Shown: positions 5,290-60,912 of the stretch, piece by piece
How positions within the stretch are numbered: position 1 is the first letter of the stretch
Layout: each line of letters starts with the position of its first letter
Source: a phage
Length of the DNA stretch: 64,000 bases
Sequence record: PX880101.1
Strand: one strand, 5' to 3'
Translations under genes and position numbers: made by a program
The notes under the pieces: generated by a model
What the model saw: only the letters and a program-made list of their open reading frames with translations
What the model was told of the DNA's origin: nothing
Databases searched by the model: none

Positions 5290-5790
5290 CTGGCATATCA
5301 AGTGTAAGGGGGATTTCTAAAATGGATTTCCTCCTTTTGATATTTCACCGGGCTGGATATTTTAAAATTCTTAGAAAATCAGAAAATGGATCGAAAACTA
5401 AAATGGATTTTTCAGAGTAGGCGCGACAAGCTGAATAACTCATCCTATCGTTTGCACCATATTCCAGGCCACCATTATAGATTTCCCACACATGCTAACC
5501 TCCCTCTACTAGAACTTCCTCCACTTGCCCTTAACCTTCTATGGTAACAATCTAACCACTATCTTGAAGTTGCGGTGCAGCTTTCCAAGTACTCGATCTA
5601 CTTTTCATTTCATGGCTTGGATTTTCTGAAAATTTTTCTCGATAAATTTCTCAGTACTCGATCTGTTTTTCGTTTTCTGAATCGGATTTTCTGGAAATCG
5701 TTCCGGATCTCGACCTGAAATTTTTGGGGACGAAATCGATTTTTCGTTTTCAGAAATGGATTTTTAAAATTTCTATATGGGAATATTTTA
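5290..5790. repeat. AT-rich iteron-like region (repeated aaaatggattt, ggattttctg, agtactcgatct, tttcgttttc units)
   Basis: Several short motifs each occur 2-4 times in direct orientation in an ORF-free stretch. Confidence 0.6.
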
Positions 5791-5879
5791 TGGGATACTG
5801 TTTTATAGGAAATTGTTACGGAGGGTAATTAGCATGCTAATTAAATTTATTAAATGCGAGGAGTTCTCATTTAGAATTT

Positions 5880-6100
5880 TGAATGATAATCATTCTCGTT
5901 TGCAGAATAACGGGCAGGCCCGGTGATTGTCTCCCGGCCCCTGTTGCCCCGGCTTGTTATTATAGTATCACACAGGACAAAGAAAGCAAGGATTTTTTGC
6001 ATAAATTTTTAAATGATAATGATAACCGTTCTCATTTTATGCAGCGCCCATCCCCGGTGGTTGTCTCCCCCGTCACCGGTGCCTGCCGTCCTTTCGATAG
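5880..6100. repeat. two tandem ~75 bp units sharing core GGTG(A/G)TTGTCTCCC
   Basis: Units beginning aatgataat...gcag...ccggtgattgtctccc occur twice in tandem; the ORF-track reading frame here is probably spurious. Confidence 0.6.
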
Positions 6101-6293
6101 GTATATTTTGCCACCTGGCGGGGCCGCTGTCAACACTTTTCAAAAAAAAATTTCTAACCTGATGCGCTGACCGCTGCAACCTGGCGGGGCCAGCCTGGCA
6201 GGGCCTAACTGACCAGGTAGGAGATAATGAAGGCTTGCAAACCTGGTGGGCCTATGCTATAGGATAGGTAACAATTGAAGAGGAGGTACAAAA

Positions 6294-13292: not shown

Positions 13293-13347
13293 ACCTGGCG
13301 GGGCCGAAAAGGCCCCCAATTATGAAAATAAAGAGAGGCAAATCATC

Positions 13348-16557: not shown

Positions 16558-16977
16558 ATGAACATTAAATCTAATAATCCGGCATATAGCTTTGATAACG
16601 CTTTTTGTCACGGTCCGGCGGCGAAAGGATTCGAAATCGATGGTAAACTAATTATTGTCAATGTTGACGGGGAAGAGGTTGCAGTATATCCGGTGGCAGA
16701 CGTAAAAAGCCGTTTACAATGCCGCATTGATGTTACCGCCTATCAGCTTGATCCGGTCCGCATAGTTGCCCTGGTCCTGGAAGAAGAAATTAAAGCCATG
16801 CACCATAGCAACAGATTTATTGGTGACGCGCAGGATAATATGAAAGTATGCCGCCATAAAGTTAATGAAGTGCTTAAAGAGTACGGCTATAAAGATCTTA
16901 TGATCAAACGTGAGGAAAAATTCCGCTACCGTAACGACCTGGCAAATCGAATCTATGAAATATACGAATCATTATAA
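16558..16977 (+). CDS. hypothetical protein
   Basis: ORF with aagagg RBS. Confidence 0.55.
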   Translation: MNIKSNNPAYSFDNAFCHGPAAKGFEIDGKLIIVNVDGEEVAVYPVADVKSRLQCRIDVTAYQLDPVRIVALVLEEEIKAMHHSNRFIGDAQDNMKVCRHKVNEVLKEYGYKDLMIKREEKFRYRNDLANRIYEIYESL

Positions 16978-16994
16978 TTTCTTAACTAAACTAT

Positions 16995-17024
16995 CAGGGG
17001 CTTTAAAAGGCCCCTTTCTTTTTG
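16995..17024 (+). terminator. intrinsic terminator ending the plus-strand small-gene array
   Basis: Hairpin aggggc-tttaaaa-gcccct followed by ttctttttg. Confidence 0.6.
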
Positions 17025-17599
17025 TCTGTATTTCTCCTACCACAAACGGCCCAGCCTGGCAAGTGGAATAATTGACTAGCCATCAATCCCACACACTGTA
17101 CAAATATACATGGAAAATAACTATTGCATAATTTTTCATTGTGTGGTAGCAAGTCCATTTTTACCCGTTTTCTCTCTCAAAATTGCACGTAATGCCGCTA
17201 TTGCACAAATTTTAACCTGATGCACATCTCCAATATCTTGTCAACAACTAAAAATCTTTATAAGTCATACACTTACACAGCATCGAAAGCGTGTTCTACG
17301 CGAAAAATCGAGTATAACTATAGCCGCCAGATCTCAGAATTCACGTACGCACGCCATTCTATAGCCTGCAAAGTATTTATTCCAACCACAGAATAACGGA
17401 ATAGTCAATACCTGCATAAAATAATTATTCGTGTAAACTGCATAACATAAATCAGCTCAGGTGTCAACATTTTTCGTAAACAGTCCGAAATTATCACGAT
17501 GAGTTATCATAAACAGAGAAATCTTTAGTCGTCTAATGTTTACTGTACATTACTATACTGACTGGAATCATTAGATGACTAAGAGAAAGATAAGAAATA

Positions 17600-18020
17600 A
17601 TTAATAATGTAATTATTTTACCTGTAACAATAAGGCAACTATGCAAACGAATGGCATGGCGCGACGGAGTCGCGACATAATATAAAAGCAGTAACCATCA
17701 CCCCCGTGATAGTTTGTCTGCAATCTATTAATCAGATCATAGTTGCCTTGTATTCAGTTAATCATGACATAATAAGCAAGGCAACTATAGATCTGCTAAT
17801 AGTTGCCCTGCTTTTATATTATGTCATAGAAACACCCGAAGGGGTGACCAAAGGTCACCTGGCATGGCCAGTGAAAGATTATTAACTTGTTAATTGTTAA
17901 CTTGCTAATTGTTTTCATGCAAACGAATGTCATGGCTTATCCTATCTGTGTAAACAGTTAAGGTGTAAACTATCCAGGCGTAAACAGTCTATGCGGGAAC
18001 AATCTATACGTGAACAGTGA
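17600..18020. repeat. cluster of direct and inverted repeats
   Basis: AGGCAACTAT x4 in both orientations; catgcaaacgaatg(g/t)catggc x2; palindrome ggtgacc-aaa-ggtcacc; five copies of a G(T/C)GTAAACAG-like iteron between 17945 and 18015. Confidence 0.6.
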
Positions 18021-18629
18021 AACATGAAATAATAACAATCGTTATTGTGTCGAAAGTGTATAAGGTGTCATAGTATGTCAGACAAGTTTTTCTCCTCTTT
18101 GTCAAGTGCTGCATGAAAATTTACAAACTGGTATGGTAGCATTTTTGCGGCCCTGTTTACATTCAGTTGTGTATGTATAACCCTTGTTGTGTGGGCGTTT
18201 AGACGTCTGGACGGTTGGAAGTCTACAGGTCAATATCTAATCTATTGGCTGCTAACTATATCCCACACAAATAGTAAGAAATACAATTGTTATGTGAGTA
18301 AACGGTAACTCATGTTATCAATCCCTGTATGGATCGCCAGTGGTGCGCATAATGGGTATTATGTTAAATTGCCCGTAATGATAACTATTCTCACAATGAT
18401 AGGTATTCTCATTCACTCCCACAAGATAGGTTGCAAATGTTGTGCCACTGTGTGAACGGCCTCACCTATTAATTTGCCTCACTGCCTCGATATTTGAGAA
18501 TTGTTATAAGAATGAGAAGTATTCCCATTTCGTCCGCCTGGCAGCACTCCAGTCGCTACCGCTCATGACAGGGCAGAACTGGGTCCATTCAGATATTTCT
18601 GGCTGACTCTTCAGGTCTGTGTGGGAAAA

Positions 18630-18810
18630 GCCAACCTCTCCGGCGGGGCAGGGGTAGGTCAATTAAAAAATTTACGTGGTGTATGAAGAGCCCTTCAGGT
18701 AAGGCATGTATTATGGGATGAAACACCCTTCAGGCAATGATATTTGTGGGTGGGATATTTGCTGGAAAGCCAGATATGACGGGACTCCTGGCGGGGCAGG
18801 GGTAGTACAG
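18630..18810. repeat. direct repeats (ggcggggcaggggtag x2; cccttcagg x2)
   Basis: Two ~17 bp units about 148 bp apart, plus a second repeated unit between them. Confidence 0.55.
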
Positions 18811-19500
18811 ACAGGGGAAATATGGTGGATGTAGTTGGGTGGATTGATCAGGCAGGTAGAGTATGGAATATGTTACAAGTATGTTAAATATGGAGGATGA
18901 ATATCTGTAGGATTTGTGTGTAAAATCAAAGACTTAAGTGGTGTTGTGGTATTTTCTATAAATAATTCAAGTTTAATAGGTAATATTTGTCTCTATCCGC
19001 TTTGTGTGGTAAACAAATTCAGATGGTGTTGGTTTACAAGTGTATACATAATATACAAATTAAAGATACAAGAAACCCCCCTCCCCCTTCGGCTACCATT
19101 CACCTTTTCCTCTGACTGGTACTTAAACACTTATTCAGACTCTTCAGGTTATCACCCATATATCATATGGCAGTGACTGGTGTCCTCCGGCCCCTCTTTC
19201 GTCACCCGTCCGCTTCGCCATGCTAATGCCATAGCCAACGGTTCGGTTGTTCACCCTGTTCACTCAGGTGTATCTCCATACCCCTTCAAACCGAAGAGAA
19301 CAGAAAACCCGAATTACTCGGTAAAAGAAAAGAGAAGAACTTAATTTTATCAGGATAGGCAAGAATGTCAAGGCATGACTGCTCACTAAACAAGCAAACA
19401 GTCATGTGTGGAAGGTAAGTGATTGTGGTGGTAGGAAATTTAGTTGAAAGATGTGTTATAGGTGCGCTTCCAGCACTTTAGCCGGGCAGCTAATTGTGTG

Positions 19501-19716
19501 TCAGTCCAGCGGTTCATCCTCTACTTCACTGAAATCAATGTTCATGGTCTCTTCCCAACCATCGATCTCAGCACAAGAGTGGAGTTCTTTAGGGTTTACT
19601 CCCAAAGCCTCAGCAACAGAGTCTATATTTAACACCTCTGGCAGGTATGATTCATCGAATTCAAGGTAAATCAGGCCACGAGTGTTGTCAGCTCCACCAA
19701 ATATTTCTATCTTCAT
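19501..19716 (-). CDS. small acidic protein (N-terminus MKIEIFG resembles paralog family A)
   Basis: ORF at the distal end of the minus-strand block. Confidence 0.4.
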   Translation of the reverse strand: MKIEIFGGADNTRGLIYLEFDESYLPEVLNIDSVAEALGVNPKELHSCAEIDGWEETMNIDFSEVEDEPLD

Positions 19717-60813: not shown

Positions 60814-60912
60814 GCTAGGTAAGCCCTTTGGCAAGGGCGAGGATTTTTAATCCTGAAAATAGACGAGGTAGTAGTTGAATACATAGGTGGTTCGATTCCA
60901 TCACCTAGCACC
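60814..60912 (+). tRNA. aberrant tRNA-like element (possible Lys-TTT loop) with ~29 nt insertion before the T-arm
   Basis: Perfect acceptor GCTAGGT/ACCTAGC, D-arm GCCC-TTTGGCAA-GGGC, T-loop GGTTCGATTCC, but oversized variable region and imperfect anticodon stem; no encoded CCA. Confidence 0.35.

Follow-up and report, generated by a model that had tools for sequence, protein, structure and literature searches.

A non-coding, repeat-rich gap in an rV5-like phage genome as the probable junction of fixed genome ends with a 458-bp direct terminal repeat

The DNA analysed here is a 64,000-nucleotide stretch of a phage genome (sequence record PX880101.1; hereafter the window), in which two convergent blocks of genes are separated by a gap of about 2.5 kb (positions 16980–19500; hereafter the region). 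We propose that this region is very probably the concatemer junction of a T7-style genome with fixed ends and a short direct terminal repeat (DTR). Judged by similarity, the window belongs to the genome of a Vequintavirus (rV5-like) phage of Escherichia coli: using blastn, 122 phage records matched a 2.7-kb segment around the region at 88–98% identity, all of them rV5-like members of that genus, and the record closest to the region was Escherichia phage A6-1 (98.5%). Comparison with these relatives indicates that a circular-type assembly brings the right end of the linear genome together with the left end in this gap, and that a 458-bp DTR (18081–18538), present as a single copy in this assembly, would be found at both ends of the virion DNA.

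Mapping of the genome ends

Several records in the blastn table are linearised at query positions 1102 and 1559 (window positions 18081 and 18538), two points separated by 458 bp. Korf et al. (2019) reported short terminal redundancies of this length for the vequintaviruses EdH4 and HdK5, and the published terminal repeat of Gotham measures 459 bp. The HdK5 record keeps both repeat copies, starting at window position 18538 (running leftward) and ending at 18081, while the two annotated repeat_regions of Gotham (459 bp) share one sequence, which matches window 18081–18538 exactly as its reverse complement. In Pr121LW, which comes from a different laboratory, the first bases are GACAAGTTTTTC (GACAAG, 18081) and the last bases CAGTATGTCA (TATGTCA, 18080). 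Since the termini of HdK5, Gotham and Pr121LW fall on 18081 and 18538, we take the centre of the region to be a DTR, the same element, base for base, as that of HdK5 and Gotham.

The two predicted cut sites can be placed to the nucleotide. The left one, TGTCA-cut-GAC (18076..18083, plus strand), lies between 18080 and 18081, as indicated by the ends of HdK5, Pr121LW and Gotham and by the onset of sequence conservation, which starts sharply at 18081, the base just inside the cut. The right one, TGCCA-cut-GGC on the minus strand (18536..18543), lies between 18538 and 18539, as indicated by the starts of HdK5 and Gotham and by a junction in the record of phage CM1 described below. In an alignment of 14 genomes (the window and 13 relatives, used throughout for conservation and open reading frame (ORF) checks), identity across the DTR is 0.91–0.98. 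By homology, the genome would thus have fixed ends that carry the same sequence of a few hundred base pairs, and the identical fixed ends given by three independent records and two papers argue against headful packaging of circularly permuted genomes. The original prediction for this DNA had likened the region to a replication origin, a packaging or injection control locus, or a terminal-repeat boundary, and had named a lack of termini in read data as the outcome that would speak against it. Ends are reported here, at 18081–18538, which upholds the terminal-repeat and packaging part of that prediction; the origin part is not supported, for reasons given with the repeat arrays below.

Other recurrent breaks among the records, at 17841, 18129 and 18269, were considered and set aside, as these look like arbitrary linearisation points. 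Two further records are unusual at this place. Shigella phage CM1 (MK962749; positions 1425–2470 of the extracted locus) carries a perfect 523-bp tandem duplication made up of 64 nt of left flank and the 459-bp DTR, the junction of which falls exactly at the right end of the DTR (...CGTCCGCC, then the break); this duplication probably arose as an artefact when the terminal repeat was assembled. Escherichia phage I29 (ON286975; positions 2303–2900 of the extracted locus) duplicates window 18322–18865 with a 60-nt inverted snap-back junction; this is either a genuine rearrangement next to the DTR or a chimera introduced during assembly.

Coding potential, repeats and conservation

The region had been described as 2.4 kb without a convincing ORF, dense in repeats and located where two gene blocks converge, and each element of this description was borne out. 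The final plus-strand coding sequence (CDS) spans 16558..16977 and the final minus-strand CDS 19501..19716, so that the two blocks end at 16977 and 19501, and careful annotations of relatives place no CDS in the gap. Most of the ORFs of 36–86 aa are interrupted in most of the 13 relatives, and the few that stay open show no bias toward the third codon position (variation of 7/7/7 and 5/8/5 by codon position). The flanking gene at 19501–19716, used as a coding control, displayed 3/2/17, i.e., 17 of 22 variations at the third position. We thus rejected the possibility of hidden small genes, along with an ORF at ~18706–18834 annotated in some records, which is frame-shifted in 6 of the 14 genomes. 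The region is truly non-coding and repeat-rich; likewise, the rV5 genome paper drew a grey “non-coding” box without ORFs at this place.

Repeated 12-mers cover 152 bases of the region, compared to a mean of 31 ± 37 for other 2.5-kb windows across the 64 kb (only 2 of 226 reach 152) and to 13 ± 20 in first-order Markov simulations. All of the repeats listed in the original prediction were recovered at or near the positions given there. These include four copies of AGGCAACTAT in both orientations (17633 on the plus strand, 17739 on the minus, 17779 on the plus, and 17799 on the minus with one mismatch; 4 vs 0.63 expected), a 20-bp direct repeat ATGCAAACGAATG(G/T)CATGGC at 17641 and 17917, the palindrome GGTGACCAAAGGTCACC at 17843–17859, five GTAAACAG-like units with a strict 15-bp period (17950, 17965, 17980, 17995, and 18010), and direct repeats of GGCGGGGCAGGGGTAG (18642 and 18790) and CCCTTCAGG (18691 and 18726). 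Despite being non-coding, this DNA is conserved roughly like the neighbouring genes (identity of 0.9–1.0 vs 0.85–1.0 in the coding flanks), the exceptions being two indel-rich patches directly outside the DTR boundaries, 17858–18070 and 18549–18607.

Several observations concern the sequence and surroundings of the region more generally. The hexamer TGTGGG/CCCACA, counted by eye, occurs about six times vs ~1.2 expected (17089, 18189, 18264, 18418, 18621, and 18745), and a visual inspection of the region revealed no Chi site (GCTGGTGG). The gene bordering the region on the left (16558–16977, 139 aa) carries a Rel homology domain according to the Murica and Pr121LW annotations and is missing from 4 of the 13 aligned relatives (Alma, ev146, FV3, and APCEc02), indicating that gene content beside the right genome end is variable. 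Finally, 19 “Campylobacter phage” records (GenBank MG0656xx, host given as Campylobacter jejuni) are 90–96% identical to E. coli vequintaviruses here, and their host label looks doubtful.

Motifs at the boundaries

Two arrays of short units precede the left cut. The outer one (17948..18018, plus strand) consists of the five 15-bp GTAAACAG-like units, with a core of GT(A/G)AAC(A/T)(A/G); across the region, this motif occurs 12 times with at most one mismatch vs 3.2 expected. In relatives, the units are ~15–16 bp long and number from 1 to ~10, the cores being kept while the copy number changes. Identity falls to 0.40–0.58 with indels, making this array the least conserved segment of the region. 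The inner array (18046..18080, plus strand) is built of ~10-bp units (9–11 bp) with a TGTCA core, present in 2–6 copies in relatives, and its final unit abuts the genome end (TATGTCA^GACAAG, where ^ marks the predicted cut). As the array runs into the cut site, the GTAAACAG “iterons” can be understood as the distal portion of a hypervariable array whose inner end coincides with the packaging cut. On the other side of the DTR, the right hypervariable patch (18549..18607) contains insertions of 14–50 nt in most relatives.

Phased units of this kind raised the question of a replication origin, in which an initiator would bind the GTAAACAG iterons and AT-rich DNA and a palindrome would serve unwinding or priming. 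The five phased units and their flanking copies, the low GC content at 17400–17650 (28–31%), a 152-bp palindrome nearby, and an extreme of the cumulative GC skew within the region would all be consistent with such a role. However, the iteron count ranges from 1 to ~10 among phages that are otherwise 90–98% identical, the array being the least conserved part of the region, and no initiator-like gene adjoins it, such that the combination of conserved phased iterons, an AT-rich element, and an initiator gene expected of an iteron-type origin is not found here. The switch in skew coincides with the switch in transcription direction, to which the rV5 authors had already ascribed the GC-skew change at this place, and a skew maximum would in any case mean a terminus rather than an origin. 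Since the array ends exactly at the packaging cut, its position is explained without an origin, and we consider it highly unlikely that the region is or contains one.

The sequences at the two cuts are related to each other and to those of other genera. Written from outside to inside, the window boundaries read TATGTCA^GACAAG on the left and, as the reverse complement, GCTGCCA^GGCGGAC on the right. The published boundaries of KPP-1, a Mydovirus, read GGTGCTA^GACGGAC and ATTGCTA^AACACAA. For this phage, PhageTerm indicated T7-type packaging with a 514-bp DTR, and its authors report pile-ups of read starts at the boundaries along with twofold coverage of the repeat. The DTR of the Mydovirus DP is also 514 bp long, and that of KPP-1 likewise falls where convergent blocks of small genes leave an ORF-poor gap. 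Using blastn, homologues of the KPP-1 terminal region were found in 66 records from other Vequintavirinae genera, two of which, KP12 and DP (the latter with an annotated 514-bp repeat), are opened exactly at the base that forms the KPP-1 boundary. In an alignment including two Seunavirus genomes, TG(C/T)TA^GACGGACA and TG(C/T)TA^AA(C/A)AC are kept in DP, GEC_vB_MG, and 4MG, whereas the DNA outside is not. Overall, the pattern TGYYA^RR, inverted at the two DTR edges, holds at all boundaries examined in four phage lineages, including the Mydovirus and Seunavirus relatives. Counted over 128 kb of single strand, the longer form TGYYARRC has 46 matches; only three fall within the region, and two of those coincide with the boundaries.

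Similarity between the genera is otherwise limited to short blocks. The proteins flanking the KPP-1 repeat have no homologues in the window, and homology over the whole repeat between Vequintavirus and KPP-1 was rejected based on the alignment score (z = 0.14). Just inside the left end of the DTR, two boxes, TTGTCAAG and AATTTACAAA (18094..18125, plus strand), separated by a variable spacer, are shared by Vequintavirus, Mydovirus and Seunavirus, which keep them equally far from the DTR end, and may represent a promoter-like element or a protein-binding site.

A model for end duplication

A single repeat copy would link adjoining genomes in replicating DNA, and with one repeat per junction, it must be duplicated when genomes are cut out. 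In the mechanism we propose, the terminase would recognise 5′-TGYYA^RR-3′ on opposite strands at the two boundaries and nick each strand at the 5′ edge of the repeat, i.e., between 18080 and 18081 on the plus strand and between 18539 and 18538 on the minus strand, with each nick leaving a 3′-OH outside the repeat. A polymerase would then extend each 3′-OH through the repeat by strand displacement to the other nick, yielding two complete ends. A shared motif on opposite strands at both edges is what staggered nicking requires, and at the sequence level this is what is found. The need to duplicate the T7 repeat has been reviewed previously, together with strand-displacement and hairpin/primase models (PMC4281155).

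Candidate binding sites, possibly for the small terminase subunit or for an accessory or host protein that would position the cuts, are the TGTCA units, which recur about once per helical turn, as well as the GTAAACAG array and the AATGATAAnnATTCTCA sites in the repeat. The rest of the 2.5 kb would serve to insulate the junction from the two convergent early-gene blocks, through terminators and through RNA that could act as a Rho substrate on both approach strands.

The left side of the junction

On the left, an intrinsic terminator with an 8-bp stem (AGGGGCTT/AAGGCCCCT) followed by a T run (16996..17025, plus strand; terminator scan) closes the plus-strand early-gene block, and is also annotated in the records of phages Alma, Murica, and HdK5. 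It is followed by an AT-rich conserved flank (17026..17640), in which C exceeds G on the plus strand (GC skew of −0.18 to −0.29), identity between the window and the 13 relatives is 0.87–0.97 per 50 nt, and ORFs are broken in relatives. Rightward read-through RNA from 17000–17450 would be C-rich and untranslated (skew of −0.2 to −0.29), making this flank a possible Rho-dependent back-up termination zone for read-through of the plus-strand block.

Next to this flank, a 276-bp cassette (17641..17936) lies between the 20-bp direct repeats at 17641–17660 and 17917–17936. It includes a 152-bp imperfect palindrome (17674..17825) with 18-bp perfect outer arms and with inner arms that hold four AGGCAACTAT copies. 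This palindrome is predicted to fold strongly (−55 kcal/mol and z = −9.6 as DNA; z = −8.2 as RNA), and in rV5 and LL12 carries a 33-nt insertion at its apical loop. The palindrome might form a cruciform or, from a single strand, a hairpin, and by analogy it is possibly a hairpin intermediate like the one proposed for T7. A function as a transcription terminator was rejected, as a U run follows it on neither strand. The cassette also includes the small perfect palindrome GGTGACC-AAA-GGTCACC (17843..17859), which is variable or deleted in some relatives, and an adjoining terminator-like hairpin on the minus strand (17833–17846; terminator scan). Phage FV3 (two records, NC_019517 and JQ031132; position ~649 of the extracted locus) lacks the cassette, which is cut out precisely between the 20-bp repeats, and is the only phage with this deletion among the ~122 records. 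The cassette is thus either dispensable in one isolate or was lost during the early FV3 sequencing project.

These variations bear on the possibility that the region is, for the most part, a dispensable spacer that buffers termination, its repeats being by-products of slippage or recombination and its sequence mattering only at the two cut sites. Such a spacer would be expected to vary as the arrays do in copy number and as the DNA beside the boundaries does through frequent indels, to lose a 276-bp cassette as in the FV3 record, to be rearranged as in the CM1 and I29 records, and to contain the terminators and rut-like composition seen here. Outside of the two patches, however, conservation of the non-coding DNA equals that of the flanking genes (0.9–1.0), the TGTCA and GTAAACAG cores persist through copy-number change, and the palindrome is present in 118 of ~122 records. 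In addition, the end-proximal boxes and a 17-nt motif described below, AATGATAAC(T/A)ATTCTCAC, are common to genera without detectable similarity in their flanking genes. Taken together, this makes a mere spacer improbable.

The right side of the junction

To the right of the DTR, 16-bp G-tract repeats (GGCGGGGCAGGGGTAG) surround the two CCCTTCAGG copies and two copies of GATATTT (18642..18805, plus strand), a segment with a weak colinear counterpart in KPP-1 (nhmmer E = 0.41). Partly overlapping this segment is a block in which G greatly exceeds C on the plus strand (18730..18990); its GC skew, which reaches +0.72 (>4 standard deviations), is unmatched elsewhere in the 64-kb window. A frame-shifting indel at 18824 in 6 of the 14 genomes indicates that this block is non-coding. 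Leftward transcripts would yield a C-rich, G-poor, untranslated RNA here, which makes the block a candidate Rho-dependent terminator. Along with the left flank, this suggests, reading purely from base composition as regards Rho, that the flanks insulate the junction from the convergent early genes, partly via Rho. A weak intrinsic-terminator-like hairpin, CCGAGTAATTCGG, followed by a U run (19299..19321, minus strand; terminator scan), is probably the terminator of the minus-strand gene block.

Further right is a near-consensus sigma-70 promoter on the minus strand, TTGACA-16-TGaTAAAAT (19344..19371; 11 of 12 matches plus an extended −10), which is kept in 13–14 of the 14 genomes. Strong sigma-70-type promoters are spread throughout the window and co-oriented with its genes; this one closes the minus-strand series, is aimed at the DTR, and is not followed by an ORF. 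It is followed by a sharply bounded conserved block of ~255 bp (19083..19337, minus strand), delineated in the 14-genome alignment and ending at a G5AG6-T3 tract. Only 6 of 275 columns are variable across 19083–19357, vs >100 of 480 in 18600–19082, and the block is at least 98% identical in 118 genomes. Only two contigs in IMG/VR match it, and a blastn comparison of 19060–19400 to 5,426 E. coli genomes revealed no similarity. The block may be a non-coding RNA or a protein-binding element and, located behind a strong outward promoter, may represent a new phage non-coding RNA.

This led us to consider whether such an RNA could be the main function of the region, with the promoter driving a ~255-nt transcript from 19337 to ~19083 and the DTR being incidental. 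The quality of the promoter and the lack of an ORF after it, conservation that is bounded by the promoter on one side and the G5AG6-T3 tract on the other and extends to 118 genomes, the absence of a coding pattern among the variable sites, and an excess of G over C on the putative RNA strand are all consistent with this scenario. Yet 19060–19337 folds only marginally better than shuffled sequences (z = −1.7 on the minus strand and −0.4 on the plus strand), the block's six variable sites include no compensatory change, and its few substitutions break one predicted helix. A terminator-like hairpin would be encountered ~20 nt past the predicted start, no counterpart was found in KPP-1, and adjoining coding DNA is about equally conserved. 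No Rfam family matches either: in a search of Rfam 15 over the window, only tRNAs (60.3–61.2 kb) reach the gathering score, and the best hits in the region (E = 0.12–4.5, searched to E 5) remain far below it. This RNA would account for only ~300 bp of the 2.5 kb. An RNA as the main function is therefore conceivable and rather doubtful, while an RNA locus on the right side is compatible with the region being a concatemer junction.

Two side results relate to these searches. A precedent for the repeats was sought in the pseudo-ToxI of phiTE, an rV5-like phage with tandem ToxI-like repeats of ~36 nt, and rejected, because the phiTE locus is located in the tRNA/terminase region and the repeat periods here are 10, 15, and 18 bp. 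Within the tRNA cluster at 60.3–61.2 kb, ARAGORN predicted a tRNA of 99 nt at 60814–60912, assigning it a four-base anticodon (atcc) and no amino-acid identity; it scores as a weak tRNA in Rfam (35.5 bits) and may be intron-containing, frameshift-suppressor-like, or degenerate.

Similarity to Fur-binding sites

The right half of the DTR includes two copies of a tandem 18-bp repeat, AATGATAACTATTCTCAC (18374..18412, plus strand), with related copies at 18508–18527 and, on the minus strand, at 18495; the third copy of this type lies inside the DTR, 11 bp from the right cut. The associated 17-nt motif AATGATAAC(T/A)ATTCTCAC is identical in Vequintavirus, where it is inside the DTR, and in Mydovirus DP and Seunavirus GEC_vB_MG, where it is just outside of it, although the surrounding DNA of the three genera does not align (window 18374–18527; extracted loci L025 543–561, L026 ~1757–1775, and L017 4295–4319).

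These motifs resemble binding sites of Fur, the iron regulator of the host. Compared to the 19-bp consensus of the E. coli Fur box (GATAATGATAATCATTATC), the motif matches at 13–14 of 19 positions in the DTR and at 15–16 of 19 in the terminal regions of KPP-1, DP, GEC, and 4MG (13–16 of 19 overall), in 6-bp-phased clusters as in Fur sites, with the caveat that consensus matching is unreliable. Across the window, 19 hits of at least 14/19 were counted vs 3.2 in simulations, a number that the −10-like sequences abundant in this promoter-rich genome may inflate. Consensus matches can fail to bind, as noted in the cited Fur paper, and the Fur-like motif is therefore a lead rather than a finding: we regard it as unlikely that AATGATAAnnATTCTCA, with its three copies in the DTR, is a genuine Fur-binding site. 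If Fur did bind, these phages would recruit it at their genome ends and in early regulatory regions, and end processing or terminal transcription might be coupled to host iron status, or Fur might be titrated away from host genes.

A second ORF-poor region of the window, at 5550–6290, displays similar features. It contains Fur-box-like sites at 5879–5903 (15/19) and 6009–6039 (16/19), each followed by ~60–90 nt of G+C-rich, structure-prone sequence, and further AATGATAAnnATTCTCA copies are found in this ORF-poor DNA at 5.88–6.02 kb. Repeats of CCTGGCGGGGCC occur at 6114 and 6180, and further ones at 13294 and 18787. Small RNAs under Fur control may be encoded in this second region, or it may be a further regulatory region; blastn of 5840–6110 against 5,426 E. 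coli genomes revealed no similarity.

Discussion

That members of this genus have fixed ends and a 458-bp DTR has been published before and is annotated in GenBank, and the novelty of the assignment is accordingly low. The published accounts of Vequintavirinae DTRs consulted here state the repeat length only; neither the arrays nor the inverted TGYYA^RR is described in them, and the same is true of the palindrome, the G-skew block, and the promoter unit. What is new here consists of modest additions, namely the hypervariable arrays that run to the cut site, a boundary rule (inverted TGYYA^RR) that extends across genera, and the T7-like layout, along with the G-skew block, the outward promoter and conserved unit, and the Fur-like motif.

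Several points weigh against a concatemer junction with fixed ends, or against parts of the model built on it. The ends are assigned by homology, to relatives that are 91–95% identical in the repeat, and conflicting accounts exist within the group: the original rV5 paper described the genome as circularly permuted, and in one 2026 paper a Vequintavirus was classified as headful by PhageTerm. The TGYYA^RR rule was formulated post hoc from few independent lineages, the base directly outside the right cut in rV5 is T and not A, and the Vequintavirus and KPP-1 repeats align as wholes without significance and share only short colinear blocks. Array copy numbers vary widely, meaning that the precise array structure cannot be essential, and the palindrome cassette is missing from the FV3 record. 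As to the mechanism, we infer the polarity of nicking, the strand-displacement step, and all protein-binding assignments.

If confirmed, ends at 18081 and 18538 would give the correct linear map for this phage and for ~120 sequenced relatives, many of which have records deposited as “circularly permuted” or opened arbitrarily, a few with assembly artefacts exactly here. This also affects the engineering and rebooting of therapeutic rV5-like phages, since the terminal repeat and cut sites must stay intact. A common TGYYA^RR boundary rule would provide a simple and testable prediction of termini across the Vequintavirinae, and the Fur-like motifs and conserved promoter unit, at present leads only, could reveal host-factor input.

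Comparison with other packaging systems

The R sites of lambda cosB with the associated IHF sites, and the hexamers of P1 pac, are accessory protein-binding repeats at packaging sites. By analogy, the region likewise combines a cut site with phased repeats that are candidate sites for the small terminase subunit or for a host architectural protein; an IHF consensus was not evident in the region upon inspection by eye. Unlike the region, however, lambda cos and P1 pac give rise to cohesive ends or headful-permuted genomes, not to direct terminal repeats.

The closer parallel is to T7 and T3, with which the region shares a short direct repeat, fixed ends, and a non-coding junction. As in T7, the repeat would need to be duplicated during processing, and arrays of short motifs abut it: the T7 record shows the 160-bp repeat followed directly by about twelve CCTAAAG units at ~12-bp spacing, with a similar array preceding the repeat at the right end, while TGTCA and GTAAACAG units take this place here. 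Both also have an outward host-type promoter of similar location and orientation, namely A0 in T7 (a leftward E. coli promoter at nt 224, with phiOR reading toward the right end in the T7 record) and 19371–19344 here. The differences are nonetheless substantial. There is no sequence similarity to T7, the phage is a myovirus of 137 kb from a group for which no single-subunit phage RNA polymerase is reported, its terminal genes are transcribed toward both ends and not inward, its arrays are clear on one side only, and its repeat is three times longer. The occurrence of T7-like arrays of short motifs beside the repeat of an unrelated myovirus suggests a general design for packaging with short DTRs.

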